Below are positions 4,579-36,071 of a stretch of 64,000 nt of DNA, one piece after another. Position 1 is the stretch's first letter, and each line of letters starts with the position of its first letter. Origin of the DNA: Gammaproteobacteria bacterium (GTDB lineage: Bacteria > Pseudomonadota > Gammaproteobacteria > GCA-001735895); the NCBI GenBank assembly GCA_050298595.1, contig JBNKUM010000100.1:64001-128000 (forward strand), read 5' to 3'. A program made the position numbers and the translations under genes. The notes under the pieces are model-generated. The model saw nothing but the letters and a program-made list of their open reading frames with translations. It ran no database searches and had not been told where the DNA came from.

Positions 4579-4581
4579 AAC

Positions 4582-5975: not shown

Positions 5976-6016
5976 AACACTACTCCTTTTTTATAAATTG
6001 AACCAATGACTTACCT

Positions 6017-9377: not shown

Positions 9378-9387
9378 GGATCAATTT

Positions 9388-10467: not shown

Positions 10468-10476
10468 TACTGAATA

Positions 10477-14006: not shown

Positions 14007-14582
14007 TCGCGAGCAATACATAGTAGTAAAACGCATTCCTTTCTAAGGGAACTGTTGATTTAATTTTCTCATTGAGAACGCAGAGTGTAGCTGGAGATAC
14101 AGATAATTGATGGATAAATGGAAATCATGAGTTTTCCTCAGCAGAAAAGTTGCGATTAAAAGGGGGCAGACATGTATGATTTGGAGTAATTATTGAGCTA
14201 TCATTTTTTATGTGTTTATATGAAATCTATCGAGATTGCCCCCCCCATAGATCCTGCATAGATCCACAATTTTATCCTCCCTGAGAATACGTCCTGTCCA
14301 CAAATTTAATGGATAAATTTGCACAGCTACGCTGCCCTTAGTGTGAGTCTCAGGGATGAGGCGAATGAATCCGCCAGTTCCAGATAATGATTGGATTGGC
14401 TAAACCCTGAAAACAATTGACGTAAAGCATTCTGATCATCAATCCTCCCTAACCACAAGAGGGAAATCCCAGGCGCCCGCGAATATGACGATAATAAACA
14501 ATTCTTGCAAAAATGACAGGCAAGTATATGATAGTCAAGACTATCATAATATTTGGTTTACTTAACCTGTGGGGTGGATGTC

Positions 14583-16748: not shown

Positions 16749-17618
16749 CAGAAGTATAAGTAGAGTAAATGTAATCCCCTGCATATAAAGGCAGAGAATC
16801 AGCATCAGAATCTCACCTGGAATGCCCGGTAACCCGGTCATCATCACTTCATTATGCTGATTTGCCGGGCAAATTTTTGCTATTCCGCATTTTCAGGCCC
16901 TCTGTCTTGAATCAGGAACAAGCCACTGGACGACCTATTCAATTCAGTTGTCGTATTGTGTGATGAAAGCAAATACAGAAAACAAGGACACCCAGTGCGC
17001 CGAGATAAATCGGCAAAAGATTGGCGGTGAAAGCCCGCTACCTGGTAAGGATTAGCGATCCGAAGACTCATCTTTTAGGGGCTTATTAAAATGGAGATAT
17101 TGATTCAGTAAAAATGGATAGGGGCTGATTTAATTACGGTTTATCCTGCCAGGATCGGTTGTTTTTACTCTGGAACGTATTTCAGGATAACGTAAACTAC
17201 TGCCGTGTTCTCAAGTTGGATTTATTTAGATTGCTAAGTGTGTTAGGTTATGTGACGGGAAAAACTTCAGAGTAGCGCTTCACACCATGCACCCAGTTCT
17301 TGCCCATTTGTTCACAGGTTTGCCATATTATATAAGCGCTACCTACCTGTGGTTTTAACGGGCTTTCAATATTTTATCTCAGGAAATCTTCAATAGCTGG
17401 ATCCTAAACTTCTGATAATCCCTGAAACTGTAATATCTATTCCTACTACTAAAACTAGCGCGGCAGTAGCCGCTATTGAAATAAACCTCAGCAAAAAACT
17501 ACATCATTCATACCATAGAGACCTTAGCATTTTTTCTCTCATGCTTTGGAAGGAGCTAAACAGGTGTAGCAAATATTTGAAAAGGCACTATGTATGTCCT
17601 GAAAAGTCGCGTCAATTG

Positions 17619-17918
17619 AACCTGGATTATGCAGTTGACCGCTCGCATTGGAAGGTAACCCACTGTTTCGTAGATCATCACAGTTGATTTATCTTTTCAC
17701 CCAGCAGTTGAAATTCCGCTACGAGCTGAATAGCAAGTTTGAGGCGGCTTATCTCTGCGTTGCCTATAGGGACATAGGTAAGGGGCGAGAGCAGGACGCG
17801 GAAGCCTTGCCTATAGGGACATAGGTAAGGGGCGAGAGCAGGACGAGGAAGCTTTGTAACTCCTTGATCTAAACTACCTCAAACGTACTACAACTCGTCC
17901 AACTGCAGATTCCAGGTT
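17619..17918 (-). mobile_element. MITE-like element (~206 bp) carrying a nested 2 x 47-bp insert
   Basis: Ends aacctggattatgcagttg ... caactgcagattccaggtt are inverted repeats. The reverse complement aligns to 57570-57774 apart from the insert. Confidence 0.85.
17760..17853 (-). repeat. Tandem dimer of a 47-bp hairpin repeat
   Basis: ttgcctatagggacataggtaaggggcgagagcaggacgcggaagcc x2 (near identical); same unit on the opposite strand at 24640. Confidence 0.9.
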
Positions 17919-18956
17919 AAAAGGTCTGCCCACGAAGCCAGGTTGAAGGGGTATCACACTGAAAAATCCCCAAATAATTTGTTGAATACGTCACAAAACC
18001 TTCTCATCAGTATGGCTTTATTAGGCAACTATAAAGCAGAGATTGATGGTGTTTAGAAGTTGTTAATCGCTTTGTGTTAGTAAGAATATTTAAAAGGGGA
18101 CTAAGTTAATGTGATGTGTGCAATACACAGCATAATGCTTTTTTGTATACGAAATTGTCATGCTCTGGATGCCTGTATATAGAGTAATTTGAAATGCTTT
18201 AAGAATCCCAGAGCTGAATGAAAGCTACAACCTGGCATTGATCTGTGATAATAGGGGGCAGACTGAATCTACTCAGAAGACAATTATCACCTGTCTAAAA
18301 TTTAATGGTTATCTACTTTAAAAAGATCTCCTTAATATTTGAGATAAAAGTCACAAATTTATTTTCCTGTTTTCTGCTTGCTGGATATCTTCATGAAGAA
18401 AGTATTGTCATTTTAAATATAAAGCATTTAATTGGTGTGTTTAGGGTGATGGTATTCCTGCTTTTAATGTTGAGTTAAAGCGCGTTTTCATACGCTCAAA
18501 AATAATCATAGGCCTACAGATTGTCAATAGTTGTAGATGTGGTTTTTTACTAAAAGAGGACGGAATTAATCATACGTTTAATAAAATGATTAGAGTTGAT
18601 ATTTACCATGAATTGATCAGTACAAAAGAATTTTGGAAATTAAATAGTCAACAGGGTTTTCTGAAGAAAATCTAAATGGGGGCAAGGTGAAGCAAGCCTA
18701 TGTCATTATAAAAATGTTCTGATCCTGGTAAATTTTAACCTTATTAACCTTTCTTGAATAAATGAGATAGGGTGTATAGCATTCTTGCACAGTCCAGTTG
18801 CACTGGGCAGCTTTCGAATGAGACAAAAAATCTTTTCAAAAAGCGGGAATTAGAATCCTGAACATGCTTTAGGGAGTGGTATAGCTTTAACAATATTGTT
18901 TTACGTGACTGGTGTGATCGGACCTGTCTATGCGTAGTACCAGATGGAGTGTTTAA

Positions 18957-21524
18957 ATGATTTCTCGTTGTCAACAGTCACAGCCCCTCGTTATTTATTT
19001 AAGCATGGTATTTCTACTGGCTTTGATATTAAGCGGCTGTAACCCGGATGATGTCGCACCCAGCAACCCAGCCCCAGCTCCTACTCAGGTTCCAACTCAG
19101 ATTCCAACTCAGATTCCAACTCAGGTTCCTACACCAGTTCCTACACCAGTTCCTACGCAGGTACCGAGTGACAATCATCAACCTGGCGCCAGGATCACTG
19201 CGCCTCAGTCCTACATCTCTGGCCAGACGGTTACCCTTGATGGCAGCGGATCATCAGACCCTGACGATGATAGACTTAGCTACCAATGGATACAGATTGG
19301 TGGTCCGAACATTGTGCTTTCGAATACAACAAGCCCCATACTTACCTTTGTTGCGGCGATAGTTGCACAACCCACACAGTTCTCTTTTCAATTGACAGTG
19401 AGCGATGGCGTGCTCTCCAGCAGCGCAAGCGTGAGCGTCCAGATCTCACCCATAGACGACGTCACCTCACCATCAATCGTTTCCCGATCACCTCAGGTTG
19501 ATCAGAGCGGAGTAGCACCGAATGCAGAGATCAGTGTCGTCTTCGATGAGGCGCTACTTGAAAGCAGCGTTGAAAGTCAGAGTTTGGTGGTTAGACAAAA
19601 CAGTAATCCGGTTGCTGGCAATGTTAGCTATGACAGTAGCAATTTTACCCTTAGCTACAAACCTGCTGCAGACCTCTCTGCTGGTCTCGGCTACACAGTT
19701 ACCCTTGACAATAGCCTCACAGATCTGGCGGGTAACACTTTCGCTGGTGAAAGCTGGAGTTTTATTACAGGGGTCTGTGCAACGGCCAATGACGGCAGTA
19801 ACCTGACGCTTAGTTGCCCTTCCGGGCAAGTTATTAATGAAGTCAACTTCGCCAGTTACGGCACACCGGGCGGTAGCTGCGGATCGTTCAGCAAGAGTAG
19901 CTGTGATGCCAGCAATTCGATGACTATTGTCGCGGTTGCGTGTAAAGGAATGGATATTTGCACGCTGAATGTCGATAGCACAATCTTCGGTGAACCCTGC
20001 AAAGGTTCGGATAAGCATCTGGCAGTACAGGTGACCTGTGGCATACCAGCGCCTGCAGGAGATGTTACAAAAACAATCGACTTGCAGGCCGCAGCCAGCG
20101 GTAATTCGGTTAAACTCAGCTGGTCGCTGAGAGGAATTACTCCCCGAACGCAGGAGATCATGCGCGGCAACGATCCTGACCCAGGTGCTAGCAGTAGAAT
20201 TGGCGTTGCGAGTAGTGGTAACGAATTTATCGATTATGACGTGAAGGTCGGTGAGTCCTACTATTACTGGATTAAGGCCTCGGATGTGGATTCGAGTGTG
20301 ACCAACTCTCAGGTCGTGTCCGTCACCGTCACCGTTCCAGCTATACCCGGCAGGTTGGAGGCTGAAGCCTATGACTCATTTCTCGATACCACGACGGGTA
20401 ATACTGGCGGAGAATTTCGTCGGGATGATGTGGATATTGAAGCCACGGCAGATCAGGGTGGTGGCTTTAATGTTGGCTGGATAACGCCTGGCGAATACTT
20501 ACGATACCACATCAATGTCGCAGAGTCGGCTGGTTATAAGCTGACACTCCGAGTAGCATCTCCCTACTCAAACAAGCAACTTATGCTCAAACTTGATGAT
20601 AAAGATATCAGCGGCGCATTGACCGTTCCCAACAGCGGCGATTTTCAGAACTGGCGTGATTTAAGCTTTAACGCCAGACTGGTAGCAGGAGTGCATCAAC
20701 TAGAGGTTTACTTTTTAACTGATGGTATAAATTTCAACTATATCGATCTGGCGATAGACGACAGTGTCACCACGGATCCCGCTAATTGGACGTTGGTCTG
20801 GAGCGATGAGTTCAACGGTGACACGATTGACCTAAGCAAATGGGAGCATGAGGTTAACGCTACCGGTGGCGGCAACAATGAGTTGCAGTATTACACGGGG
20901 CGTTCTCAAAACTCATGGGTTTCTGATGGGCTGCTACATATTCAGGCGCTAAACGAGCGGTATTCAGGCCCGGAAGGAACCCGGAACTTCACCTCCGCGC
21001 GTTTACGTACTTTGAACAAAGGCGACTGGAAGTACGGTCGTTTTGAAGTGCGCGCCAAACTTCCCCAGGGGCAGGGGATGTGGCCGGCTATCTGGATGCT
21101 GCCCACGGATTGGGTATATGGTGGCTGGGCTGCCAGTGGTGAAATCGACATTATGGAAGCGGTCAACCTGAAAGGTGCTGGCGGCAATACTATTTATGGA
21201 ACACTACACTACGGTGCTGAATTGCCCAATAACATATATTCAGGCGATCAGACTGAGCCTTCCACCAGTGTGGTTGATGAGTTCCATAACTATGCGCTGG
21301 AATGGGATGAAAATGAGATCCGATGGTATATCGATGGCGTTCATTATCAAACGCAAAATAACTGGAGTTCTACTGCGGCACCTTATCCCGCGCCATTTAA
21401 CCAGCGTTTTCATATGATTTTGAACCTTGCGGTGGGTGGTGATTGGCCGGGCAGTCCCGACAGTTCCACGCAATTCCCACAAAGCATGGATGTTGATTAT
21501 GTTAGAGTTTATCGAAAAGACTGA
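18957..21524 (+). CDS. Multidomain lipoprotein GH16 beta-1,3-glucanase (laminarinase-like): PT linker, PKD-like, Ig-like, SUEL-type lectin, FN3-like, CBM6, GH16
   Basis: Lipobox LILSGC; LDGSGSSDPD; LSCPSGQVI..FASYGTP.G.CG..FGEPC; EAEAYD..VGWI..GEYL; WSDEF, WPAIWML and catalytic EIDIME. Confidence 0.9.
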   Translation: MISRCQQSQPLVIYLSMVFLLALILSGCNPDDVAPSNPAPAPTQVPTQIPTQIPTQVPTPVPTPVPTQVPSDNHQPGARITAPQSYISGQTVTLDGSGSSDPDDDRLSYQWIQIGGPNIVLSNTTSPILTFVAAIVAQPTQFSFQLTVSDGVLSSSASVSVQISPIDDVTSPSIVSRSPQVDQSGVAPNAEISVVFDEALLESSVESQSLVVRQNSNPVAGNVSYDSSNFTLSYKPAADLSAGLGYTVTLDNSLTDLAGNTFAGESWSFITGVCATANDGSNLTLSCPSGQVINEVNFASYGTPGGSCGSFSKSSCDASNSMTIVAVACKGMDICTLNVDSTIFGEPCKGSDKHLAVQVTCGIPAPAGDVTKTIDLQAAASGNSVKLSWSLRGITPRTQEIMRGNDPDPGASSRIGVASSGNEFIDYDVKVGESYYYWIKASDVDSSVTNSQVVSVTVTVPAIPGRLEAEAYDSFLDTTTGNTGGEFRRDDVDIEATADQGGGFNVGWITPGEYLRYHINVAESAGYKLTLRVASPYSNKQLMLKLDDKDISGALTVPNSGDFQNWRDLSFNARLVAGVHQLEVYFLTDGINFNYIDLAIDDSVTTDPANWTLVWSDEFNGDTIDLSKWEHEVNATGGGNNELQYYTGRSQNSWVSDGLLHIQALNERYSGPEGTRNFTSARLRTLNKGDWKYGRFEVRAKLPQGQGMWPAIWMLPTDWVYGGWAASGEIDIMEAVNLKGAGGNTIYGTLHYGAELPNNIYSGDQTEPSTSVVDEFHNYALEWDENEIRWYIDGVHYQTQNNWSSTAAPYPAPFNQRFHMILNLAVGGDWPGSPDSSTQFPQSMDVDYVRVYRKD
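19080..19166 (+). repeat. 12-bp coding tandem repeat (PTQV/PTQI/PTPV linker)
   Basis: ccaactcagatt / cctacaccagtt units, about 7 copies. Confidence 0.9.
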
Positions 21525-24776: not shown

Positions 24777-24848
24777 TCAGGCGCTGTATACGGACCCGTA
24801 TGTACGGTGCTGTGGGAGGGGGCTACTTGAGTAGCTCCCTATCCCGAT
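24777..24848 (+). ncRNA. Group IIC intron 3' end relic (domains V-VI)
   Basis: gcgctgtatacggacccgtatgtacggtgctgtgggaggg-gctac-ttga-gtagc-tccctatcccgat resembles the class C DV/DVI consensus and ends in AY. Confidence 0.75.
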
Positions 24849-27550: not shown

Positions 27551-27578
27551 AAGAAAAAACCCCGGACTGGCCGGGGTT
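27551..27578 (-). terminator. Rho-independent terminator of the lipoprotein gene
   Basis: aaccccgg-actgg-ccggggtt hairpin with a T tract on the minus strand. Confidence 0.8.
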
Positions 27579-27597: not shown

Positions 27598-28956
27598 TTA
27601 AGGTAGGGGATTGAAGCTTTGCTCAAATGCCCCCGTCCAGTCTGTTCCATTCGGATAGACACTTTGCAGATACACCGCATTGTTCAGTGCAGTAGAACGC
27701 CAGTCCATCGGGTCAGTTCCCTGGTTTTGTTCCTGACCGGCAAAACCATCAACGAATATTGCATTCAATAGTGAATTGCAGTCATCGTTAACATTGGCGC
27801 AAAGGTCACCGCTGAAGTAGTCAGTGTCGAGGGATAGTGCAGTTTTAATCATATCCAGTGAAGGATCGAAAGGCACCCAGCTTCCGTCGATTTCGGCTGT
27901 TGTGCGACCACCTCGGTAATTCGATGAAGTAACCGTTTTATTAATATATTCCCAGTCCATATCTTCTTCGAAGAAATAGATATCACGCTTGGTAAAAAGA
28001 TAATTGCCCAGATTGTTGTTGCGAAAAATATTGACGAATAGTGGCAGTGACATGTTCTGAATCTCTTCAATGGCGGCACCATTTCCCAGACCATCGGCCA
28101 CTGTGTAAAAATGAACATCAGGTATTTCTGTAATTCCACTAACCGGCAGAAACTGGTTAGTCATTTTTATTAAACCACGTGCGCTATAGACCTGTTGTAG
28201 CTGATTGGCCTGCAGGTCTTTTGTAATATCGATGCGCATGCCATCGGCCCAGGGATTATTACTATCGAATTGCAGGAACATATCTGCATTTTTACTGGAG
28301 GCATTAAAGTTGAAATCCATACGCATGCGTACAGGATCAGTAACGAGACGATCAGCGCTAAGTGCACTGGCGTCAACAATCATTCGGCCCTGTGCATCTG
28401 TATCATAGCTTGATTTCCAGGAGATATAGAATCCCGGCAGATCGTTTTCGGTGGGTGGGTTGGCCCGATCATAGCCGTAATACATACGAATCGTGGTCTG
28501 TGTGTCCGAGTCATCGGTGATACTGTAATGTGTCGGATCTTCGTTATCGTAATTGGTGGCCTGGATGTCATTATCGGTTTCAACAATACTACCGTCATGC
28601 ACGACTACATCGGCCAAATCAATCAGGAGGTCGGCGATACAGGTCCAGGTAGCCATGGTAGAAACCATGAAGCGGGTGGTTTTATAACCATTTTCAAAAA
28701 TGTCATCATGTTCAGCTCCCAGATAAGTACAGGGTTCGCCAGTTGAGGACTTGCTGGCCAGATCACTAGTCTGGATTTTATTAGCCAAAGACAGGTTTGC
28801 TACGGCTTTGCCACCGGTTATGCTGTCAGGCAGGTTCAGGTCTACTGTTAGATTGTCATCAGTTGTGCTGCCACTTGCGTCCGTATCCGTACCACATCCG
28901 CTAATAAAGATGCCACTGGCCAGTAACAGTGGAATAATAAGATAGGATTTTTTCAT
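27598..28956 (-). CDS. Uncharacterised acidic lipoprotein (452 aa)
   Basis: aaggag RBS, MKKSYLIIPLLLASGIFISGC lipobox; D/N/T-rich and beta-rich appearance; no family recognised. Confidence 0.8.
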   Translation of the reverse strand: MKKSYLIIPLLLASGIFISGCGTDTDASGSTTDDNLTVDLNLPDSITGGKAVANLSLANKIQTSDLASKSSTGEPCTYLGAEHDDIFENGYKTTRFMVSTMATWTCIADLLIDLADVVVHDGSIVETDNDIQATNYDNEDPTHYSITDDSDTQTTIRMYYGYDRANPPTENDLPGFYISWKSSYDTDAQGRMIVDASALSADRLVTDPVRMRMDFNFNASSKNADMFLQFDSNNPWADGMRIDITKDLQANQLQQVYSARGLIKMTNQFLPVSGITEIPDVHFYTVADGLGNGAAIEEIQNMSLPLFVNIFRNNNLGNYLFTKRDIYFFEEDMDWEYINKTVTSSNYRGGRTTAEIDGSWVPFDPSLDMIKTALSLDTDYFSGDLCANVNDDCNSLLNAIFVDGFAGQEQNQGTDPMDWRSTALNNAVYLQSVYPNGTDWTGAFEQSFNPLP

Positions 28957-29003
28957 GGTTATCTCCTTGATCGTTGATTCAGTTGATTGATTTCGCATGA
29001 TAA

Positions 29004-29031
29004 AGGAGACAGGCAGTGCCGGTAGATTTGA
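29004..29031 (-). promoter_or_regulatory. Putative ECF promoter, copy 1 (lipoprotein)
   Basis: Minus strand TCAAAT-N15-GTCTCCT. Confidence 0.6.
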
Positions 29032-29057
29032 AAAAATAATCTGCTTTTAGTGTGTTT

Positions 29058-29085
29058 TTAAAAAAAATCTAATTTAGTGTCTTCT
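29058..29085 (+). promoter_or_regulatory. Putative ECF promoter, copy 2 (M48 operon)
   Basis: TTAAAA-N15-GTCTTCT. Confidence 0.55.
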
Positions 29086-29114
29086 TATACAATAAAATTT
29101 TTGTTGGTCTGGAT

Positions 29115-30971
29115 ATGTTTCGAAACCTTATTCTAGTCTTTGGTCTGCTGTATTTTAGTGGCGGATTATCAGCGCAAGTGTTACTGCAGCAGGATAACCC
29201 TGCACAGTTCATCAGCTTCTGGAAGTCCAGTGTGATTAGCCCCGATGAGGATGACGCGGTACGGTTTTCTCAGGAGATATTCAAACGGCTATTGCGTGGA
29301 TGGGAGAGTAGCCGTCTTGAGCCGGGGTTATACGTGGTTGATTCCGATCAGGGACCCTGGGCGGTATCGCTGGTCGACGGCAATATACTTTTAAGTCGAC
29401 AGGCTATCAGCAGGATTTTAGATTTTGGAGCGGATCGTGCTGAGCATTTAATGGCCTTTGTACTGGCGCATGAACTGGCGCATCAGAAATCAGATGATTT
29501 ATGGCAGCATCGTTTTTTTCGGAAGACGATGAATCAGCAACAAAACAGGGGTGTTGAAATTGTCGATTTGCAAATGGATAGGCGATTGCTGCAACAGATG
29601 GAACAGCAGGAGGCGCAGGCGGATTACGATGGCATGATGCTGATGATTAGTGTGGGTTTTAATCCGCATTATGTGGTGACGAAAAAAGATTTTTTTACCG
29701 AATGGGTGGAGAATATCTGGCAAAAACCCTGCGCAACCCAGCAGGATGAGGTGTTATCCGAGGCCTGCCTGCAGGCAAAACAGCGCGCTCAACGTACTCG
29801 ATCACAGCTTAAGTCCCTGGCGGATCAGTCGGGTTTGTATCAACTGGGTGTGCAGGCTATGGTGGCGGCTGATTATCAAAAGGCGCGCTATTACTTTTCT
29901 CTGTATGGTCGAGATTTTCCCAGTCGTGCGGTTATGTCGGCCATCGGTTCTAGTCATCTGGCCGAAGCGATTCAACTGCGCAAAGAACTGATTCATAGTG
30001 GTGATTTAAACGAGGGAGATTTTTACTTTCCGCTTATTCTGGATGCGCGAGCCGGAATAGAGGCGCTGGATGAATCTGAAAAATCCACCAAAAGGGCAGG
30101 AGCCAATGAGGCTTTATCCATCCGCGAGGCTTTAGAGCGCCATGTGAAAAAGGCGGTCTATTATTTCGAAAAAGCCATTCGACTGGCACCTGAAAACAAG
30201 AAAACCTATCAGCAACTCATCAGTGCTTATCTTGCAGGCGGTAATATTCCGATGGCGCGTGGCATACTGCAGGGAAGGTATATTCCTCAGTTTGGAGAGG
30301 ACATGCTGTCCAGTCTGTTGATGGCGCTCACGATTTCTCTCGAAGGAGATCAAAAGCTTGCATTGAAAAAACTCAACGCGCTGTCAGAACAATTAGTTGA
30401 TACAGTGAATAATCAACAACCGCTTGAGGATGTGCTGCTGTTCTCGGTATTTAACAATTTAGTCGTGCTGCTAAAACAGGCTCAGAATGATGATCAGGTG
30501 ATCCCGGTGTGGAAAAAACTGGCGCGTTTAAGTCAGGGATCGGGTAATGCGAGTCTTTTTCGATTGGCTCTGTCCCGTATTAATCCTGCCTCGGCGATGG
30601 TGAATGGTGATTTGAAAGTAGCGCCTGGCGTCAATGGCCTGCGTCTGGGTAATCGTAAGATGAGGGATGATTCGGCACACAGCATCAATGAACTATGGAT
30701 TGAGGGCGATCTGTATCATGTTTATCAATATGAAACCGGGGCGCAATTTATCACTGGGGTAGATGGCAAGATCATCAGCGCCCGACAGCAGTCAGGTCAG
30801 GCAGCGATTGGAAAGCTGAAAATAGGTGATAATACAGAGCGCGCATTAGTCACTCTGGGCCTGCCGGACCGACGCCAGTATCTGGTGTCAGGAGAATACC
30901 TGGCCTATGATAGCTATGGTCTGGCGATACAGGTCAATGAAAATAAAGTGAAAGGATGGTTTTTATATTGA
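29115..30971 (+). CDS. Exported M48-like zinc metalloprotease with TPR-like repeats
   Basis: Signal peptide; AFVLAHELAH (HExxH) and downstream EAQAD; TPR-like AVYYFEKAIRLAPEN. Confidence 0.8.
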   Translation: MFRNLILVFGLLYFSGGLSAQVLLQQDNPAQFISFWKSSVISPDEDDAVRFSQEIFKRLLRGWESSRLEPGLYVVDSDQGPWAVSLVDGNILLSRQAISRILDFGADRAEHLMAFVLAHELAHQKSDDLWQHRFFRKTMNQQQNRGVEIVDLQMDRRLLQQMEQQEAQADYDGMMLMISVGFNPHYVVTKKDFFTEWVENIWQKPCATQQDEVLSEACLQAKQRAQRTRSQLKSLADQSGLYQLGVQAMVAADYQKARYYFSLYGRDFPSRAVMSAIGSSHLAEAIQLRKELIHSGDLNEGDFYFPLILDARAGIEALDESEKSTKRAGANEALSIREALERHVKKAVYYFEKAIRLAPENKKTYQQLISAYLAGGNIPMARGILQGRYIPQFGEDMLSSLLMALTISLEGDQKLALKKLNALSEQLVDTVNNQQPLEDVLLFSVFNNLVVLLKQAQNDDQVIPVWKKLARLSQGSGNASLFRLALSRINPASAMVNGDLKVAPGVNGLRLGNRKMRDDSAHSINELWIEGDLYHVYQYETGAQFITGVDGKIISARQQSGQAAIGKLKIGDNTERALVTLGLPDRRQYLVSGEYLAYDSYGLAIQVNENKVKGWFLY

Positions 30972-31028
30972 TCTGTCAAGCAGGCCGCTAGTCGCTATAT
31001 ACTGTTGCTGGATAATTATGGACATGCA

Positions 31029-31940
31029 ATGACACCGAGGTCATCAGCACAACAGCAAATTGAGCTATCTCTGACTGCAGCCAGGGGTGAGGTTAAGGCG
31101 CGTGCGCAGGTGAATGAATTGATCCATCCTGTGATCGAATATCATACGGCTTTATTTTGTAAACGCTTCTGTGAACAGAATCGTTTTCAGTATCGATGCA
31201 GCCTGAATAAGCCCTGGGGTACTCAATCTGCACAGGCAGCTTTATGCGAATGGGGCAATGCGAGTTATGGCTGGATGTTAAACGATCTCACCAGCTCCAG
31301 CCGCCTGCAAAAATACCAGGCCAGGGATGGTGCCAGTCTGTTTGATTATCTGTATCGAATCGCTAATTCGCTACCATTTTACGAACGCTGGAAAGACTGG
31401 CGTTTCGGACGAAAAGTTCATGTACCGACCTATGTGATTGCGATTGATGAACACGCAAAGTCAGTTTTTTATGCCTTGAGATCCGGGCTGAATCCAGAGC
31501 TAATCGCACAACAGTTGAGACTTTCTATGCATGATGTTGAACGCATTATTCGGCACATAGTCGTCGAGTTGACCCAGCATCATCGTCTCTATCTGCTGGA
31601 TTCCCCTAAAACTCAATCCTTGACGGCCAGTGGTGAAAACGATGAGCATGAAAATGCACATCAAATAGATGTGGCAGTGATTGATGATGAATATTTGCAA
31701 CAGGATGAGCAACAATATATTAATAAGGCGTGGAAGACTCTGGATACGATAGAACAGTTTGTGCTGGAGGCACTGGTGATCAATGAACAGGATGCGAAGC
31801 AGGTACTGAAGGCTTTGAGCAGGCTGGATATCAGCATTAAAAAAGGGGTTAGGCCGGAAGATACCAGTATCCAGCAACTGTATTATTTTAAGCGCAAGTC
31901 GTTGAACAAATTGCAACAGGCACTGGAGTCCGCTGGATGA
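31029..31940 (+). CDS. Atypical ECF-like sigma factor
   Basis: Sigma2-like AARGEVKA... and LQKYQARDGASLFDYLYRIANS; sigma4-like INKAWKTLDTIEQFVLEAL...YFKRKSLNKLQQAL; followed by a ZAS anti-sigma gene. Confidence 0.7.
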   Translation: MTPRSSAQQQIELSLTAARGEVKARAQVNELIHPVIEYHTALFCKRFCEQNRFQYRCSLNKPWGTQSAQAALCEWGNASYGWMLNDLTSSSRLQKYQARDGASLFDYLYRIANSLPFYERWKDWRFGRKVHVPTYVIAIDEHAKSVFYALRSGLNPELIAQQLRLSMHDVERIIRHIVVELTQHHRLYLLDSPKTQSLTASGENDEHENAHQIDVAVIDDEYLQQDEQQYINKAWKTLDTIEQFVLEALVINEQDAKQVLKALSRLDISIKKGVRPEDTSIQQLYYFKRKSLNKLQQALESAG

Positions 31941-31950
31941 AAATAAGTTT

Positions 31951-31978
31951 TCAAAAGATCACAAAGTTGCAGTCTTCT
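31951..31978 (+). promoter_or_regulatory. Putative ECF promoter, copy 3 (anti-sigma and downstream genes)
   Basis: TCAAAA-N15-GTCTTCT. Confidence 0.6.
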
Positions 31979-32001
31979 AATCACCAGAAAACAGGTGAAA
32001 T

Positions 32002-32880
32002 ATGAATTTTGATCAACATCCCGATGATGAACTGTTACAGGCTTACCAGCAAGAACCTGCAGCAGACAGGTTTATTGAGGTCAGTTTACATCTGGCCAGT
32101 TGTGCGGATTGTCGTCAACAGCTTGCCAGGGTGCAAAATCTTAGATCTATCTATCGCTATATAGAGAGCGAAACGCTCAGTGATGAACAACAGCAACGGG
32201 TGGAGGAATTTACTCAGCAATCATTATCCGAGGAAGATTATGCAGCGGCCAGGGATGAAATTCGTAATAATCCGGGAATGTTGAAGTCAGCTTTATATAG
32301 CCTTTCCATGCCGCAGGATGTACTGCCGCATAGTATTCCTGCGAACGCTCCTGATAATGAAAACAGCTTCATGTCACAGCTGATCGAATGGTTCAACTGG
32401 CCCACTCCAGCATGGGCAGGTTTTGCCGCAGGGGCGGTCATTACATTAACCGTAAGTGTTTTATTATTGGGTAACTCCATGTTGCAGCATGGGGCAACAT
32501 CCTCAATCAATATCGCCAGCTATCAGGATAGTAAAAGCATGCGCTTTATCCCCCAGCAGACGGTTCCGGGTATAGGTTTTTTCAGTGCCGCAAATAATTA
32601 TGCCAAACCCTATGACAATTTACTGATCAGTGTTGATGACGATCATCAATTACAGATGCAATGGCAGCCGGTAGATAACGCAACGCAATATCAGATCTCT
32701 GTGTATCGTTTTAGCGATGGCGATAAACAGTTAGTTGAAAAAGTGACCACCCGGAATACTTATGCCTCGATACAACTTCAGCTAGAATCCTTTAATCAAC
32801 GATTTGAATGGACATTAAGTGGAAACACTTCGCAACAGGAGGTATTCATTACCTCAGGTGGTTTTGTAATCGGTCAATAA
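32002..32880 (+). CDS. Zinc-binding (zf-HC2/ZAS) transmembrane anti-sigma factor
   Basis: HPDDELLQAY...HLASCADC (HxxxCxxC), single TM helix, FN3-like periplasmic domain (WQPVDNATQYQISV). Confidence 0.82.
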   Translation: MNFDQHPDDELLQAYQQEPAADRFIEVSLHLASCADCRQQLARVQNLRSIYRYIESETLSDEQQQRVEEFTQQSLSEEDYAAARDEIRNNPGMLKSALYSLSMPQDVLPHSIPANAPDNENSFMSQLIEWFNWPTPAWAGFAAGAVITLTVSVLLLGNSMLQHGATSSINIASYQDSKSMRFIPQQTVPGIGFFSAANNYAKPYDNLLISVDDDHQLQMQWQPVDNATQYQISVYRFSDGDKQLVEKVTTRNTYASIQLQLESFNQRFEWTLSGNTSQQEVFITSGGFVIGQ

Positions 32881-33935
32881 TGATGCATAACTTAAACACA
32901 TCTTTGAAAAACAGTATCCTGTTAGGTTTTATGTTACTGAGTCTGATCGCGCAAAACCTGCTGGCTCAGCAATATACCGGCAAACGCGGTATCGGTCTTG
33001 AATTGCACGAGCCAGTAGCAAGAGCACCGTTTAGTGGCGGATTTTATCGTGCGCTGATTATCGGCAACAATGTCTATCATGACCCCAGCGGACAATGGCC
33101 GCATCTGAAAACAGCGGTAAGCGACGCGCGTAGCCTGAGTCAGGTATTAAAAAGCCAGTATGGATTCAGTGATATCAGCCTGCTGGAAAATGCAACACGG
33201 CGTGATGTGCTGAAAGCCATGGAAGCCTTAGCTAACCGCGCGCTGCCGAATGATAATATTCTGGTGTATTACGCAGGCCATGGCTTTATTGATGATGAAA
33301 AGCAGCGTGGTTTCTGGGTGCCGGTGGATGCCAATGGCCTGGATAATACGACCTTCCTGAGAAATTCAACCATACGCGACGAATTAAACCTGATTGCATC
33401 GCGTGCCAAACATACGCTGCTGATTTCTGACTCCTGTTTTAGCGGCAGCCTGTTACGTCCAGTTAGTCGCGGGCTGAGTCAGGTTAGCGATAGTGAAAAG
33501 TACTTTAAAAAAGTATCCAGAAAAAAGAGTGTTCAGATCATGGCTGCGGGCGGAATCGAGTATGTGGATGATAATTACCAGTCTTCTGGTCATTCGCCTT
33601 TTACCTACTTTTTATTGAGCGAATTAAAAAATAATGACCGTGAGCTGATAACCCTGAGTGAACTATCGCAGAATGTCACGCGCGTGGTGGCGAATAATGT
33701 CGAACAGGTACCTCAAAGTGGCGTGTTACAGGGTGCCGGTGATGAGCTGGGTGAATTTATTTTTATCAAACTGAATGTTGAAGTGGATGGTGTGCCTGCA
33801 GAGAAGGTAAAGGTGCAGGTGAACGTTGTACCTGCCAAGGGTGCTGCAGCTAGACCAGTAGTCATTGAACAGGTTCAGCCAGCTGAGCAAAAGTCGAGCA
33901 TAGTTAAACCGCATCTTCCTATGCCTTCATTATAA
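32880..33935 (+). CDS. Exported caspase-like (peptidase C14) protease
   Basis: Signal peptide; ALIIGNNVY, LKTAVSDA, YYAGHG (catalytic His), DSCFSG (catalytic Cys), HSPFT; start overlaps the anti-sigma stop (TAATG). Confidence 0.9.
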   Translation: MMHNLNTSLKNSILLGFMLLSLIAQNLLAQQYTGKRGIGLELHEPVARAPFSGGFYRALIIGNNVYHDPSGQWPHLKTAVSDARSLSQVLKSQYGFSDISLLENATRRDVLKAMEALANRALPNDNILVYYAGHGFIDDEKQRGFWVPVDANGLDNTTFLRNSTIRDELNLIASRAKHTLLISDSCFSGSLLRPVSRGLSQVSDSEKYFKKVSRKKSVQIMAAGGIEYVDDNYQSSGHSPFTYFLLSELKNNDRELITLSELSQNVTRVVANNVEQVPQSGVLQGAGDELGEFIFIKLNVEVDGVPAEKVKVQVNVVPAKGAAARPVVIEQVQPAEQKSSIVKPHLPMPSL

Positions 33936-33946
33936 AGGAACAAATT

Positions 33947-34657
33947 ATGAATCGAGTGACGAACATACTCTGCACAGGACTGTTAAGCCTAAGCCTGACA
34001 CCGCTATGGGCTCAGGATTCACTCAATCTCGGTGTGGTGTTAAATGGCGGTGGCTGGAGTGCTGATAATGGAGCCGGTAGCAACAATTTTAGCAGTGATA
34101 AGGGCGGACAGTTCGGCGTTAGCGCCAGTTGGGCAGGAGATGCCTATTACTTTGGCCTGAGTTTGCAGGGCGGAGAGTATCAGTTTGATAACACAGGGCC
34201 TGGCCAGTTTACCTCCGCAGGGGCGATAGCCACCAGCGATGTCAGTGTCAAGCATGCAGATTTTGACCTGCTTGCAGGATATTATTTCTGGGAACAGGTA
34301 TCGTTGTTTGTCGATCTTAAAACGGTTAGCAGCACCTGGAATAACAATAATTATAAGCAGAGTTTCTCAGGGCTGGGTATTGGCGTTGCGGGTTATCACC
34401 CGATCAATGATGTCTGGACGTTTTATGGATCACTGGGGTTTGTTGGCGGTGATATCAAGGAGGATGGTAGTACGACACTGGGACGCGCAGGCAGCAGTGC
34501 CCTGATTCTGGGGGTGAATTATGCGCTGAATAAAAAAGACCACCTCAGCACAGGCTTTAAATCTCGCAGCTACCTGTTTGATTATGATGATGGGAATGAG
34601 CAGCAATATAATCTGAAGGGTTTATTTTTCGGTTACAATCATGCATTTGAACTATAA
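33947..34657 (+). CDS. Outer-membrane beta-barrel protein
   Basis: Signal peptide, alternating G/aromatic beta pattern, C-terminal GLFFGYNHAFEL. Confidence 0.75.
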   Translation: MNRVTNILCTGLLSLSLTPLWAQDSLNLGVVLNGGGWSADNGAGSNNFSSDKGGQFGVSASWAGDAYYFGLSLQGGEYQFDNTGPGQFTSAGAIATSDVSVKHADFDLLAGYYFWEQVSLFVDLKTVSSTWNNNNYKQSFSGLGIGVAGYHPINDVWTFYGSLGFVGGDIKEDGSTTLGRAGSSALILGVNYALNKKDHLSTGFKSRSYLFDYDDGNEQQYNLKGLFFGYNHAFEL

Positions 34658-35159
34658 ACCGCTTGTACCCCTTTTATTGCTATTTATCTCCTTTAGTGTA
34701 TCTGCCAAACCTGCTGCGGAACTAAGAATAGTAAATCTGGATATCACCACCCACCTGGGTGACCAGCAAGTTTATCATGCCGGGGATAAGCTGAGTTTCA
34801 TGCTATCGCTGGATGAGGATGCCTACGTGTATCTTTTCTATCAGGACTCTGAAAATCACTTGTTGCAGCTACTACCAAACGCACAACACAGGCAGAATTT
34901 TTTTAAAGCTGGATTATATATTCCTATACCTGATCCTGAAGCGGGTTTCAGTTACAAGGTAGAAGCTCCGTTTGGTACAGATCGCGTATGGGCTTTTGCA
35001 GTCGATCATCAGCATTCAGGGCTTCCGGGTCAGGTTCTGGGAAATGGACTCATACTTATGTTACAAACCATTGATCAGGTTCGTAGTGAACTCAAGGCTC
35101 AGGCAGAGAAAGTATTTGATCAGTCTTCAAAACAGATTATCACCCAGCCAGAAAAATAA
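34641..35159 (+). CDS. Exported DUF4384-like protein
   Basis: YHAGDKLSF...DAYVYLFYQDS...LLPN...PFGTDRVWAFA pattern; signal peptide. Confidence 0.8.
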   Translation: MHLNYKPLVPLLLLFISFSVSAKPAAELRIVNLDITTHLGDQQVYHAGDKLSFMLSLDEDAYVYLFYQDSENHLLQLLPNAQHRQNFFKAGLYIPIPDPEAGFSYKVEAPFGTDRVWAFAVDHQHSGLPGQVLGNGLILMLQTIDQVRSELKAQAEKVFDQSSKQIITQPEK

Positions 35160-35174
35160 CAGCTTGATCAAAAC

Positions 35175-36071
35175 CTATCGGGAATTTTGACTATGACCAA
35201 TATTGGAAAAATTAGCGGTAGTGTCTTCGTAGTTGAGCATAGATTTCAATTCTTTCCAAACTGACTCAGAATTAATGATTCGATCATGCCCCCATTTGTT
35301 GGTAACTACTAATTTGGTAAGTGGGAATTTGGCGCTAAATTTTACGATATCTGAAATCGGAGATAAATCATCGCTCTTATCATGTGCGATAACAGTATGG
35401 TCACTGTATTTCTGCAAATTTGTAGCCAGTTCAAATTTGGCATACTTCCTAACATAGTTTGCAACAAATTTGGCAGCGTATTGTTTTAATATATCAGGGT
35501 GTAACTTCAGGCCTTTCAGTCGATTAAGAAAATACAGTTTGTAATTAAAAACAGGCGAGATTAAAAACAAGGGTAAACCATTTATCAGAGCCGGTTCGCT
35601 ATTGGCAATGACCGTGCAACCGATATCGTGCCCAACCACTGCATTTAGCCCATTTAGATGATTGATTTTGACAAACTTTAATATGGTATTTGTGGTTGAA
35701 ACCATCTGCTGTATGGTTGCAGGTTTGCTTTCGCTTTGTCCATGACCCAAATGATCAAACGCAAGCGCCGTAAAACCACAGTCTCTGAGACCTCGCATCA
35801 GTGAAAAAAACTGAGAAGCCCCGCCACCCCAGCCATGTATAAAAACAACGGTTGGTCCTGTACCCGTCTGGTAAATATTAACCTTACCATCTGCTGTATT
35901 AAATCTAAGTCGCTCGAAGTCTTTCGGTGTCTGTTGATTGTTACTTTGCTGAGTATTCAGCATAAATAGATGAGCATCAATTTTGCGTTCGGCCCATTTT
36001 GGGGAGATTCGATTCCTGATTAAATCTAACGACATTAGAAGAGAGGATTGAGCATTTTTGAAATTCGGCAT
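35175..36071 (-). CDS. Alpha/beta-hydrolase fold protein
   Basis: HGWGG, FDHLGHGQS, elbow GHDIG, HDKSD and GH. Confidence 0.82.
   Translation of the reverse strand: MPNFKNAQSSLLMSLDLIRNRISPKWAERKIDAHLFMLNTQQSNNQQTPKDFERLRFNTADGKVNIYQTGTGPTVVFIHGWGGGASQFFSLMRGLRDCGFTALAFDHLGHGQSESKPATIQQMVSTTNTILKFVKINHLNGLNAVVGHDIGCTVIANSEPALINGLPLFLISPVFNYKLYFLNRLKGLKLHPDILKQYAAKFVANYVRKYAKFELATNLQKYSDHTVIAHDKSDDLSPISDIVKFSAKFPLTKLVVTNKWGHDRIINSESVWKELKSMLNYEDTTANFSNIGHSQNSR

Follow-up and report, generated by a model that had tools for sequence, protein, structure and literature searches.

A candidate self-regulating envelope sigma/anti-sigma module with a metacaspase-like and an M48-TPR protease in a gammaproteobacterium

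A locus at positions 27598-35159 of the window (the whole 64,000-nt stretch analyzed, whose numbering is used throughout) encodes two exported proteases beside a predicted sigma/anti-sigma pair, raising the question of whether the proteases control the pair or are simply switched on by it. We give roughly even chances to reading these genes as a self-contained envelope sigma/anti-sigma module under positive autoregulation, in which the metacaspase would be the most likely protease to clip the anti-sigma.

Gene content, conservation and a shared promoter motif

The open reading frames comprise six co-directional genes and one divergent gene, as the initial annotation had described. A lipoprotein frame lies on the minus strand (27598-28998, 466 aa), followed on the plus strand by frames for an M48-TPR protein (29115-30971, 618 aa), a sigma-like protein (31005-31940, 311 aa), an anti-sigma (32002-32880, 292 aa), a caspase (32808-33935, 375 aa), a barrel protein (33947-34657, 236 aa) and a DUF4384 protein (34641-35159, 172 aa). 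For three of these the real start codon likely differs from the start of the frame: the lipoprotein gene likely begins at the ATG at 28956, with AAGGAGA ahead of it (27598..28956, minus strand, 452 aa; N-terminus MKKSYLIIPLLLASGIFISGC), the sigma-like gene at the ATG at 31029 (31029..31940, plus strand, 303 aa, as in database copy P0001), and the caspase gene at an ATG at 32880 that overlaps the anti-sigma stop codon (32880..33935, plus strand). A terminator-like G+C hairpin (27558..27578; 8-pair stem with 6 GC pairs, then a T run on the minus strand) is located 20 nt past the lipoprotein stop codon, and no repeats were found flanking the module. A hydropathy scan with a 19-residue threshold revealed N-terminal hydrophobic segments in the lipoprotein, M48-TPR, caspase and DUF4384 proteins, in agreement with the signal peptides first assigned to both proteases; the barrel protein harbors MNRVTNILCTGLLSLSLTPLWA, yet stays below the threshold.

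Dozens of uncultured bacteria from marine and sediment habitats carry the module. Co-conservation was counted at loci around the sigma-like gene in other species, considering only those extending far enough to judge; of the 43 loci informative for every partner, 35 keep all six in order. The genes are thus co-conserved, and the lack of synteny on which the initial annotation would have given up its proposal was not encountered. Individually, the partners lie near the sigma-like gene in 60/63 (anti-sigma), 57/60 (M48-TPR), 53/58 (caspase), 52/58 (barrel), 51/55 (DUF4384) and 42/49 (lipoprotein) loci. One of the five caspase misses, L054, bears a divergent caspase, and in the variant loci L068 and L072 sigma and anti-sigma are still paired with caspases; in L041 and L042 only the half with the lipoprotein, M48-TPR and sigma genes remains, the adjacent anti-sigma-caspase half being absent, and L036 lacks both caspase and barrel.

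A bipartite promoter motif, TTTCAAA-N16-GTCT, was found upstream of the lipoprotein, M48-TPR and anti-sigma genes, in the window and in other loci. Within the window, an exact copy (P_lipo, 29007..29033, minus strand) faces the lipoprotein gene, a copy with one mismatch, TTTTAAA-N16-GTCT (P_M48, 29056..29082, plus strand), faces the M48-TPR and sigma-like genes, and a second exact copy (P_asig, 31949..31975, plus strand), beginning 9 nt past the sigma stop codon, faces the anti-sigma, caspase, barrel and DUF4384 genes. The exact motif occurs at 101 sites in 73 loci, as compared to 0-3 in each of 10 shuffles, and with at most one mismatch it precedes the lipoprotein gene in 37/41, the M48-TPR gene in 51/57 and the anti-sigma gene in 49/61 loci. 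The spacer measures 16 nt in 93 of 94 sites, and the median distance to the start codon is 37-73 nt. The predicted promoter thus combines -35/-10 geometry and a fixed spacer with a GTC-type -10 element, and its conservation at three places in the cluster lends strong, if indirect, support to the earlier claim that the sigma induces the cluster.

Exported proteases and the anti-sigma: regulators or outputs

The caspase matches Pfam Peptidase_C14 (85.7 bits), carries the motifs YAGHG and DSCFSG and a conserved C-terminal tail, and by sequence is metacaspase-like, its closest solved relative being yeast metacaspase 4f6o (E 3.6e-5). GHG is kept in 54/54 orthologs and DSC in 53/54. The product of the M48-TPR gene (29115..30971, plus strand) is an exported zinc metalloprotease of M48-like type; TPR matches mark a TPR region, and an uncharacterised domain of ~120 aa lies at the C-terminus, a BepA-like architecture. 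Its HELAH and EAQAD motifs (HExxH then E..AD) are retained in 58/58 orthologs, so that both proteases have intact motifs, as first noted. Although the window protein scores 16.4 bits against Pfam Peptidase_M48, under the 20.3 cut-off, 18/33 orthologs match at E<=0.01, and hhalign places 99 columns across the catalytic core on E. coli BepA (E 7.2e-5, prob 63%).

The small outer-membrane beta-barrel protein (33947..34657, plus strand) has no Pfam match in the window copy, and 21/31 orthologs match OMP_b-brl (best E 6.2e-12). Caspase and barrel are fused in 3/54 loci (L032, L044, L064), on two separate branches of the caspase tree. The exported DUF4384 protein (34641..35159, plus strand), for which no solved relative was found, had been called DUF4384-like; with 76.3 bits to the Pfam model it is a true member. 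The lipoprotein, with lipobox ISGC and five cysteines in its 452 aa, has 349 homologs, all unnamed and lacking Pfam domains; it matched nothing in Pfam, NCBIfam or the PDB and belongs to no known family. An Atlas model of its homolog P0329 weakly resembles large outer-membrane barrels (TM about 0.45), which we regard as a lead only.

The anti-sigma (32002..32880, plus strand) has a cytoplasmic ZAS domain (H6...H30xxxC34xxC37) and a single hydrophobic segment, the TM helix spanning residues 136-161; its periplasmic domain contains an FN3-like part and a GFF (inside PGIGFF) that is invariant. HxxxCxxC is kept in 58/61 orthologs and missing from three. Profile searches returned ChrR 2q1z (E 1e-3), then RslA, DdvA (8rlz_A, a weak match, E 0.19) and RsiW; NCBIfam ChrR matches at 2.4e-4, and the L068 ortholog passes Pfam zf-HC2. 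The profiles identify the 292-aa protein as a ZAS anti-sigma of ChrR type, with the motif, helix and periplasmic domain of the initial description.

In the mechanism we propose, this ChrR-like zinc-type single-pass anti-sigma would keep the sigma at the inner membrane. Once it is inactivated, the sigma would bring RNA polymerase to the three TTTCAAA-N16-GTCT promoters, giving the divergent lipoprotein, the M48-TPR protein with the sigma, and the anti-sigma with metacaspase, barrel and DUF4384 protein. The barrel would retain the metacaspase at the outer membrane, and the metacaspase, as the most likely site-1 protease, would clip the periplasmic part of the anti-sigma upon an envelope cue. The DUF4384 and BepA-like M48-TPR proteins may gate the caspase or handle outer-membrane components, and a housekeeping site-2 protease encoded elsewhere in the genome would complete cleavage. 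In the initial annotation the barrel or lipoprotein might receive the signal and the DUF4384 protein might serve as adaptor or inhibitor. Metacaspase relatives are expected to cleave after Arg or Lys (PMC6426788, together with general background), yet no conserved basic residue was seen in the periplasmic juxtamembrane stretch of the anti-sigma, which counts against clipping by the caspase.

A tentative alternative is that the pair merely turns on an outer-membrane proteolytic or assembly machine, of which caspase-barrel-DUF4384, M48-TPR protein and lipoprotein are the output; the exported proteins might then have surface or outer-membrane proteins as substrates for processing, maturation or quality control, and the anti-sigma would be inactivated by other routes such as redox or zinc loss at the ZAS site, the four-cysteine site of the sigma or housekeeping proteases. 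Consistent with this alternative, ChrR-type ZAS anti-sigmas are described as able to respond without proteolysis (PMC8999054), and the M48-TPR architecture and core align with BepA, described as an outer-membrane-protein assembly/degradation factor (PMC7950410, PMC8423444). All three motif promoters face exported-protein genes, placing these in the regulon, and in L030 the divergent promoter faces an Omp85-family barrel gene in place of the lipoprotein gene. Elsewhere, away from any sigma, the same caspase clade is found in fusions with domains of the lectin-like, PEGA and solute-binding kinds. Median identity across loci is highest for the caspase (59%) and lipoprotein (52%) and lowest for the anti-sigma (28%), a pattern to be expected if the core function lies with the exported proteins. 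Conversely, the anti-sigma-to-caspase junction is tight (median gap 8 nt, overlap in 21/53 loci), and the sigma-caspase pairing survives in the divergent L054, L068 and L072, which is more readily explained by a direct link than if the caspase were just a target. In ECF-type systems, moreover, the co-transcribed genes are commonly those of the system's own regulators and not of unrelated effectors.

A putative, divergent sigma-70 relative with three domains

In the 303-aa sigma-like protein, a sigma2-like N-domain with an inserted C-x3-C-x8-C-x15-C motif is followed by a central HTH and, past an acidic linker, by a sigma4-like HTH at the C-terminus; the four cysteines are invariant in 64/64 orthologs. 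It matches no Pfam or NCBIfam model. The window clade alone gave no PDB match by profile search and no match to RpoE by hhalign, and an RpoE-seeded HMM recovers none of the sigma-like proteins. Among distant relatives, 16/48 match Pfam Sigma70_r4 or r4_2 at E<=0.01, six of them above the gathering cut-off, and hhalign joins these relatives to the window clade (prob 99.9%, E 2.6e-34). The merged profile finds SigA (2.8e-6) and FliA sigma4 (6.9e-6) in the PDB, and it aligns with an RpoE mini-alignment over 139 columns, sigma2 included (E 2.7e-5, prob 74%). None of the 48 relatives matches Sigma70_r2, so the sigma2 assignment rests on that single hhalign comparison. Atlas neighbors are sigma-70 families. 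The protein would thus be a divergent three-domain sigma-70 relative, connected only through profile chains, and we infer that it binds the anti-sigma and that its four cysteines have a role. Of the former designation as an ECF sigma, sigma-70 kinship holds transitively, whereas the canonical two-domain ECF form does not. That designation had been made by eye.

We consider it improbable that the 303-aa protein is instead a LuxR/GerE-type HTH activator with the 292-aa protein as its membrane-bound partner. Its central domain does match GerE, LuxR and DesR about as well as sigma4, and searches with just the window clade find no sigma model; however, RpoE regions 2.1-2.4 can be aligned to the N-domain and the whole FliA sigma4 to the C-terminal domain, the partner is a ChrR-type anti-sigma domain, and the motif is unlike a dimeric operator in its -35/-10 geometry, fixed spacer and GTC -10.

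Relation to known systems

No system of the same gene composition was found in the published literature, as initially supposed, and partial precedents exist: DdvA/DdvS, craspase Csx30-RpoE, EACC2-caspase-ECF neighborhoods and BepA. E. coli SigmaE-RseA-DegS/RseP-RseB is autoregulated, with periplasmic proteins encoded beside the anti-sigma (rpoE-rseABC locus). The module likewise pairs a predicted autoregulated operon with a membrane anti-sigma having cytoplasmic sigma-binding and periplasmic domains, and periplasmic proteins encoded beside it could gate cleavage. In contrast, it lacks a DegS-type serine protease/PDZ or RseB homolog, its candidate site-1 enzymes being the metacaspase and the M48 metalloprotease, and it has a three-domain Cys4 sigma, a TTTCAAA-N16-GTCT promoter and a ZAS anti-sigma. 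FecI/FecR/FecA-type systems serve cell-surface signalling (PMC5411451, PMC11637429). They share a divergent outer-membrane protein gene under the cluster's own sigma and a single-pass anti-sigma reaching the periplasm, but the module showed neither a TonB-dependent transducer nor a FecR domain, and any likeness of the lipoprotein to large barrels is an Atlas lead only.

DdvS/DdvA of Myxococcus xanthus likewise joins a single-pass zinc-type anti-sigma to TPR repeats and a caspase-fold protease in the periplasm, and caspase-like cleavage ahead of RseP has been proposed (PMC11506125). There the TPR-CHAT is fused to the anti-sigma, with an incomplete active site, and DdvS is a canonical ECF controlling CBASS/CRISPR genes (PMC11506125), whereas the module has a different sigma, a separate, barrel-tethered, metacaspase-like caspase, and TPR on the M48 protease. 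The initial statement that caspase-sigma links are cytoplasmic was therefore incomplete, DdvA being a transmembrane anti-sigma whose TPR-CHAT domain, caspase-like, is periplasmic (PMC11506125). Type III-E craspase also links a caspase-family protease to a sigma factor through a partner that binds the sigma: Csx29 (TPR-CHAT) is reported to cleave the RpoE-binding Csx30, some copies of which have DUF4384 as C-terminal domain (bioRxiv 10.1101/2022.08.17.504292). Craspase is, however, cytoplasmic and RNA-guided, while the module's parts have export signals and the window yielded no cas genes. EACC2-caspase neighborhoods, described computationally, share the trio of caspase, ECF sigma and TPR protein (DUF1822), with a caspase-triggered transcriptional output proposed (Kaur et al. 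2021, PMC8195603); unlike these, the module has no EACC2, DUF1822, variable C-terminal sensor or TRADD-N, its caspase is secreted and barrel-linked, and it adds anti-sigma, M48, lipoprotein and DUF4384. The periplasmic protease BepA of E. coli (PMC7950410, PMC8423444) shares the exported M48 core followed by TPR repeats, with HExxH and E..AD aligned, but its similarity to the M48-TPR protein is low, and the latter has an extra C-terminal domain and a gene co-transcribed with the sigma gene.

These craspase and EACC-caspase precedents, for which similar proposals exist, and a match of the caspase to the PADLOC generic caspase model (1.6e-11) are what speaks for a conflict system (e.g. anti-phage defence or programmed cell death) with the exported caspase as effector and the sigma as transcriptional arm, which we judge very unlikely: the seven proteins gave no other PADLOC match of note, the 59 flanking ORFs scanned (of 111 listed from 14 loci) are a mixture of housekeeping and signalling genes forming no defence islands, the sigma-like protein matches nothing in plasmid or phage collections, flanking repeats and cas genes were not found, as noted above, every catalytic component is exported, and the caspase domain begins ~30 residues past the signal peptide, leaving no space for an EACC domain.

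Taken as sequence-based proposals, the sigma-like protein would represent a previously unrecognised type or clade of sigma factor, and the anti-sigma may plausibly be cleaved by the caspase or the M48 protease, though the proteases may be outputs instead. The seven-gene set has the look of a new envelope signalling unit that regulates itself.

Organization and conservation of the seven-gene cluster

Seven open reading frames (ORFs) occupy positions 27598-35159 of the window: a lipoprotein gene on the reverse strand, followed on the forward strand by genes for an M48-TPR protein, a sigma-like protein, a predicted anti-sigma factor, a caspase, a barrel protein and a DUF4384 protein. The gene set proposed in the initial annotation, six co-oriented genes and one divergent gene, is borne out, and the ORF coordinates agree with its description of the co-oriented genes as closely spaced or overlapping. 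For example, the start of the caspase gene, corrected to 32880, overlaps the anti-sigma stop, and 17 nt are shared between the barrel and DUF4384 genes. The sigma-like gene starts at ATG 31029 (303 amino acids in the database copy), and the most likely start of the lipoprotein gene is ATG 28956, which is preceded by AAGGAGA and gives the N-terminus MKKSYLIIPLLLASGIFISGC with a lipobox; a terminator-like hairpin lies 3' of this gene (27558-27578). By hydropathy, the lipoprotein, M48-TPR, caspase and DUF4384 proteins each have an export segment at the N-terminus, the anti-sigma factor has a single internal hydrophobic segment (residues 136-161), and the sigma-like protein has no such segment; the barrel leader is recognisable by eye, yet falls under the hydropathy threshold used. 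The seven-gene module measures about 7.6 kb and has its own predicted promoters.

A scan of loci around the sigma-like gene in other genomes, using one genome per species, yielded 73 loci, of which 64 are gammaproteobacterial, two "Proteobacteria", two Desulfobacterales and five Nitrospirota by their record labels; all derive from metagenome bins except the Olavius Gamma 3 symbiont scaffold. Partner genes were sought by tblastn with the seven window proteins, and each was scored only in loci long enough to include its place. On this basis the lipoprotein is present in 42/49 loci, the M48-TPR protein in 57/60, the anti-sigma factor in 60/63, the caspase in 53/58, the barrel in 52/58 and the DUF4384 protein in 51/55, and all six partners are present in order in 35 of 43 loci. 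The synteny search proposed in the initial annotation therefore reveals a co-conserved gene set. Median identity to the window proteins is highest for the caspase (59%), followed by the lipoprotein (52%), sigma (50%), M48-TPR (43%), barrel (39%), DUF4384 (37%) and anti-sigma (28%) proteins. By tblastn across the loci, conservation does not extend to the two alpha/beta hydrolases that flank the window cluster.

Several loci depart from this arrangement. A divergent caspase is located 3' of the DUF4384 gene in L054, a 757-amino-acid lipoprotein ending in DUF4384 takes the place of caspase and barrel in L036, and L041 and L042 harbor the lipoprotein, M48-TPR and sigma genes only, followed by glyQS. 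In L065 a transposase interrupts the sigma gene, and in L030 an Omp85-family barrel is encoded where the lipoprotein gene otherwise sits; the divergent genes of L030 and L005 were considered as lipoprotein homologs and rejected after comparison. Genes inserted between barrel and DUF4384 in four loci are unrelated. Two loci on one Nitrospiraceae contig (L068 and L072) combine the sigma gene and a Pfam-positive zf-HC2 anti-sigma gene with other caspases and with CsgG/FlgO-like and Lcl_C proteins, and show the theme on a larger scale and in a different build. The sigma/anti-sigma copies on this contig are divergent and about 24 kb apart, with several caspases around each; one of these caspases has 1098 amino acids with CARDB/DUF11 repeats, and the CsgG/FlgO-like members are lipoproteins.

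The remainder of the window holds features of its own. A Ser/Thr kinase ORF of 174 amino acids (2632-3156, reverse strand) covers Pfam Pkinase positions 85-260 only, and the missing N-terminal lobe indicates that the gene is truncated or broken. Positions 4001-6000, over an ABC transporter operon (solute-binding protein, permease, ATPase), have a G+C content of 0.56 against about 0.44 nearby. Five co-oriented genes at 6487-14006 (forward strand), encoding a SWIM zinc-finger protein, DUF5691, a MoxR-type AAA_5 ATPase, DUF5682 (698 bits) and a VWA/CoxE protein, constitute a compact MoxR-VWA-type module. A 2.2-kb stretch (16750-18950) is without any ORF above 63 amino acids, except a 76-amino-acid ORF at its 3' edge (18744-18974), and carries a 47-nt tandem repeat of 2.1 copies (17760-17856); it is bordered by a neutral/alkaline ceramidase homolog (14553-16748) on one side and by a GH16/CBM6 multidomain glycosidase (18957-21524) on the other. 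Roughly 3 kb from the cluster, at 24779-24848 (forward strand), the Rfam group II intron model RF00029 matches with 43 bits (gathering score 40); no reverse-transcriptase ORF adjoins this match, which is probably an intron remnant. Finally, a large [NiFe]-hydrogenase region (36247-56892) comprises hyp maturation genes, an uptake hydrogenase with cytochrome b, and a second small/large subunit pair that adjoins a PAS histidine kinase and a sigma54 activator in a sensor-hydrogenase-like arrangement; the source organism is probably a hydrogen oxidiser.

A putative sigma-70 relative, its predicted anti-sigma factor and a shared promoter motif

In sequence searches the window sigma-like protein has no match in Pfam, NCBIfam, PADLOC or PDB. 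Its family comprises 520 relatives at 90% clustering, and among the 120 relatives listed none is named and none carries a Pfam domain; matches at E ≤ 1e-3 came to only 142 representatives out of 1.84 billion. Sigma70_r4 or r4_2 is detected at E ≤ 0.01 in 16 of 48 distant or long relatives (six of the 48 above the gathering score), with matches of this type falling at two positions, about 123-174 and about 225-290, and Pfam Sigma70_r2 in 0/48 distant relatives. The window-clade alignment (A1) aligns with that of the distant relatives (A4) over 284 columns (probability 99.9%, E 2.6e-34). In a PDB profile search, both A4 and a merged profile (A6, whose first row is the window protein) match SigA, FliA, sigma28, sigmaF, RpoD and several ECF sigmas, the best matches of A6 being SigA (2.8e-6) and FliA residues 139-240 (6.9e-6), and the C-terminal domain of the profile spans FliA sigma4. 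A6 also aligns by hhalign with a small RpoE-based alignment (RpoE and two ECF ORFs; E 2.7e-5, probability 74%), which places the N-domain on RpoE residues 7-110 with a Cys-rich insertion between regions 2.1 and 2.2, and the Atlas feature neighbours of a database homolog (P0102) are sigma-70 families with scores of 0.94-0.95. A1 alone gave nothing in the PDB profile search or in hhalign comparisons with E. coli RpoE and the RpoE-based alignment, and an RpoE-seeded HMM run on 906 ORFs of the loci and the window retrieved two ordinary ECF genes only and no sigma-like protein. It is only by transitive profile evidence that the protein can be assigned as a putative sigma-70 relative with a sigma4 domain.

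Of the original designation "ECF sigma", the sigma-70 relationship stands through these transitive profiles, and the two-domain ECF architecture does not: the 303-residue protein has two HTH regions, at about 130-185 and about 235-300, with an acidic linker between them. Canonical ECF factors (group 4) consist of sigma2 and sigma4 only and have about 200 amino acids. In our reading, the predicted domain order is sigma2, a central HTH in the sigma3 position, a long acidic linker and sigma4, which fits the short connection from sigma2 to the HTH and the length of the linker, an argument that draws on sigma region 3.2. Because of this three-domain build we do not file the protein as ECF, although its behavior would be ECF-like, with its own anti-sigma factor, autoregulation and an ECF-like promoter. 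Four cysteines in the arrangement C-x3-C-x8-C-x15-C are invariant in 64/64 sequences, namely the window protein and 63 of 70 locus ORFs, the other seven being outside the length filter of 250-380 amino acids.

The 292-amino-acid product of the next gene is predicted to be a ChrR/RsrA-type ZAS anti-sigma domain protein. It matches the NCBIfam ChrR model (2.4e-4), and a 39-sequence profile retrieves from PDB ChrR (2q1z, E 1e-3, residues 1-81), then RslA, DdvA and RsiW. Residues H6, H30, C34 and C37, an upstream His plus HxxxCxxC in the N-terminal helical domain, are nearly invariant, and we read them in the light of the ChrR zinc ligands. HxxxCxxC is retained in 58/61 orthologs; it is lost in L053, L057 and L047, which retain the rest of the cluster, L053 and L057 being sisters on the caspase tree. 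In the periplasmic part, GFF is invariant and forms part of a PGIGFF motif, and one region is weakly FN3-like. Profile, motif and hydropathy thus uphold the earlier description of a ZAS anti-sigma factor with HxxxCxxC, one transmembrane helix and a periplasmic domain.

Of 39 lipoprotein/M48 intergenic regions examined by k-mer counting, 36 contain TTTGAA and 33 contain TTCAAA; in shuffles the maximum was 18. An initial model of an inverted pair (ATTTGAAAA/TTTTCAAAT) without a -10 element was dropped, since the copy in the sigma/anti-sigma intergenic region, tTTTCAAAta-N-tGTCTctT, set the orientation and exposed GTCT, giving TTTCAAA-N16-GTCT. Comparison with the known consensus sequences of sigma32, sigmaE and sigma28 ruled these out, the sigma32-like TTGAAA included, because of the fixed N16-GTCT on the other side. 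Within the window the short 9-mer by itself shows no enrichment (41 matches, 32.5 expected), and the motif with at most one mismatch occurs four times against 1.45 expected: before the lipoprotein gene (29007-29033, reverse strand), before the M48-TPR gene (29056-29082, forward strand), before the anti-sigma gene (31949-31975, forward strand), and at 36037-36063 (reverse strand), a probable chance match. The promoter search covered ±10 kb per locus. In the 73 loci taken together, exact copies of the motif number 101, compared with 0-3 in each of ten block shuffles, and 189 matches with at most one mismatch compare with 18-26 in shuffles; by place, such matches precede the M48-TPR gene in 51/57, the anti-sigma gene in 49/61 and the lipoprotein gene in 37/41 loci. 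The spacer is 16 nt in 93 of 94 placed sites (15-17 allowed), and the median distance from the GTCT end to the predicted start codon is 37-73 nt.

The motif, as a predicted promoter, has ECF-type geometry, and we infer that the sigma-like protein is the factor that reads it; binding of core RNA polymerase and cognate promoter recognition by this putative sigma factor gain indirect support via TTTCAAA-N16-GTCT. The motif positions suggest two forward units (M48-TPR with sigma; anti-sigma, caspase, barrel and DUF4384) and one reverse unit (lipoprotein), all sigma-dependent, an arrangement that would result in positive autoregulation with built-in negative feedback.

Exported proteases and their partners

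The window caspase matches Pfam Peptidase_C14 with 85.7 bits (cut-off 21.4), its domain beginning at residue 57 of 351 amino acids, directly past the signal peptide. CHAT (15.8 bits in Pfam) and the NCBIfam EACC1-type caspase model (87 bits, cut-off 140) remain under their cut-offs. The closest solved relatives in a PDB profile search are metacaspases, with yeast Yca1 (4f6o, 3.6e-5), AtMC4 and MALT1 retrieved, and YAGHG and DSCFSG align with the catalytic His and Cys of solved relatives; GHG is conserved in 54/54 and DSC in 53/54 orthologs. The M48 assignment of the M48-TPR protein, indicated by motifs and a weak family match, is weaker than the caspase and DUF4384 calls: the window protein scores 16.4 bits against Pfam M48, below the cut-off of 20.3, and 18 of 33 aligned orthologs reach E ≤ 0.01 (best 2.6e-5). 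The HExxH and E..AD motifs are kept in 58/58 orthologs, and the profile aligns by hhalign with the HExxH and E..AD core of E. coli BepA (E 7.2e-5, probability 63%, 99 columns), while its PDB search returned TPR proteins only and zero M48 chains. The catalytic motifs of both proteases, described as intact in the initial annotation, are so and are conserved in orthologs.

The DUF4384 protein matches PF14326 with 76.3 bits (cut-off 27), and its profile retrieved nothing from PDB. The barrel is a predicted small outer-membrane barrel of the OMP_b-brl type at family level only, PF13505 being detected in 21/31 orthologs (best E 6.2e-12); the window barrel itself has no Pfam match, and the barrel profile retrieved nothing from PDB. 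For the lipoprotein, Pfam, NCBIfam and a PDB profile search gave no match, and the likeness of a homolog's Atlas model to large outer-membrane barrels (TM score about 0.45) is only a lead.

In three of 54 caspase ORFs (L032, L044 and L064), caspase and barrel form one uninterrupted ORF, a fusion that would place the caspase at the outer membrane. On a caspase-domain tree of the window and 53 other sequences (FastTree, midpoint rooted, L068 left out, clades not formally tested), L032 and L044 are sisters and L064 is far away, which suggests at least two fusion events. Longer relatives in the clade of this caspase carry fusions to Lcl_C, FGE-sulfatase-like, PEGA and periplasmic solute-binding domains, so that joining of an exported caspase to a binding or anchoring module is a recurrent theme. 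A database homolog of 647 amino acids on a 2.6-kb contig (P0410) joins an ECF sigma2 region, a periplasmic-binding-protein fragment and the C-terminal two thirds of a caspase of this clade; a chimera produced by assembly or gene calling on a short contig is the most likely explanation, and the record was left unused, though a real fusion would be informative. The gap between the anti-sigma and caspase genes, measured with heuristically called start codons, has a median of 8 nt, with overlap in 21/53 loci and at most 30 nt in 42/53.

Proposed regulation and significance

We consider autoregulation of the seven-gene module by the sigma/anti-sigma pair, acting through the shared promoter, to be probable. 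The full statement, in which this autoregulated pair is joined by a caspase that, possibly with the M48-TPR protease and the DUF4384 protein, gates breakdown of the anti-sigma factor, seems to us evenly poised between right and wrong. Direct cleavage of the anti-sigma factor would be favored by the tight anti-sigma/caspase gene junction, by the persistence of the sigma-caspase pairing in divergent variants and by the DdvA precedent, and disfavored by the partial loci without the caspase half. Metacaspase relatives prefer Arg or Lys, and no conserved basic residue was seen in the juxtamembrane segment of the anti-sigma factor, which we count against direct cleavage. The main rival sees in the exported proteins the output, namely a regulated complex for proteolysis or assembly at the outer membrane, with the ZAS site or the sigma factor's own cysteines sensing redox state or metal, and we regard it as possible though on balance unlikely. 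A reading of the cluster as a defence island was rejected and one as a mobile element is disfavored, since among 59 flanking ORFs, drawn from the 111 nearest in 14 loci, the genes are varied housekeeping and signalling ones (metH, rapA, rplM-rpsI and chemotaxis genes included), PADLOC returned only a generic caspase match for the seven proteins, the sigma-like protein has no match in plasmid or phage collections, and no flanking repeats were seen around the cluster.

To return to regulated breakdown of the anti-sigma factor, one form of this idea envisages a hitherto unrecognised sigma-70 clade, missed by present Pfam and NCBIfam models and with an invariant four-Cys metal/redox centre in sigma2, that is regulated proteolytically, with an outer-membrane-tethered periplasmic metacaspase, gated by DUF4384 and the BepA-like M48-TPR protein, acting as a free-standing site-1 protease for the ZAS anti-sigma factor. 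We put this forward tentatively, as a doubtful proposal when taken whole. If true, a member of the caspase family would for the first time have been shown to drive transmembrane signalling by a sigma factor across the envelope of bacteria, and the bridge from inner to outer membrane would itself be the sensor.

A sigma/anti-sigma pair with dedicated proteases is already known as a principle, and none of the precedents has this composition. The closest include DdvA/DdvS (PMC11506125), the craspase Csx29-Csx30-RpoE system, where DUF4384 is among the C-terminal domains found in Csx30 (bioRxiv 10.1101/2022.08.17.504292), ECF54 with CHAT and other protease contexts (PMC8999054), and EACC2-caspase neighbourhoods that also contain an ECF sigma and a TPR protein (PMC8195603). 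BepA is a close precedent for the M48-TPR protein, but the cluster composition differs. In contrast to the SigmaE-RseA-DegS-RseB system, a DegS-type S1C protease with PDZ and RseB were not found among the seven proteins (Pfam, NCBIfam); unlike type III-E craspase (Cas7-11, TPR-CHAT Csx29, Csx30), the window has zero cas genes by Pfam; and unlike the EACC2-caspase-ECF-DUF1822 systems, the caspase lacks an N-terminal EACC2 and no DUF1822 match was found in Pfam. Mentions of DUF4384 in the literature searched are confined to seven papers. Consistent with the initial annotation, which knew of no characterised system with this composition, our literature search found no description of it, the ECF classification supplements, which may hold related contexts, being outside the search.

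The compact module with its own promoters, which comes from uncultured sulfur- and hydrogen-oxidising lineages, makes possible a heterologous test of whether regulated intramembrane proteolysis can have a caspase-fold protease for its site-1 enzyme. Should the proteases instead be outputs, the locus would still define a new regulated outer-membrane protease complex. The finding would add a sigma-factor lineage now labelled "hypothetical" by annotation pipelines, hand that lineage a ready-made testable promoter signature, and set exported bacterial metacaspases and DUF4384, which are widespread but functionally blank, in a concrete physiological context.
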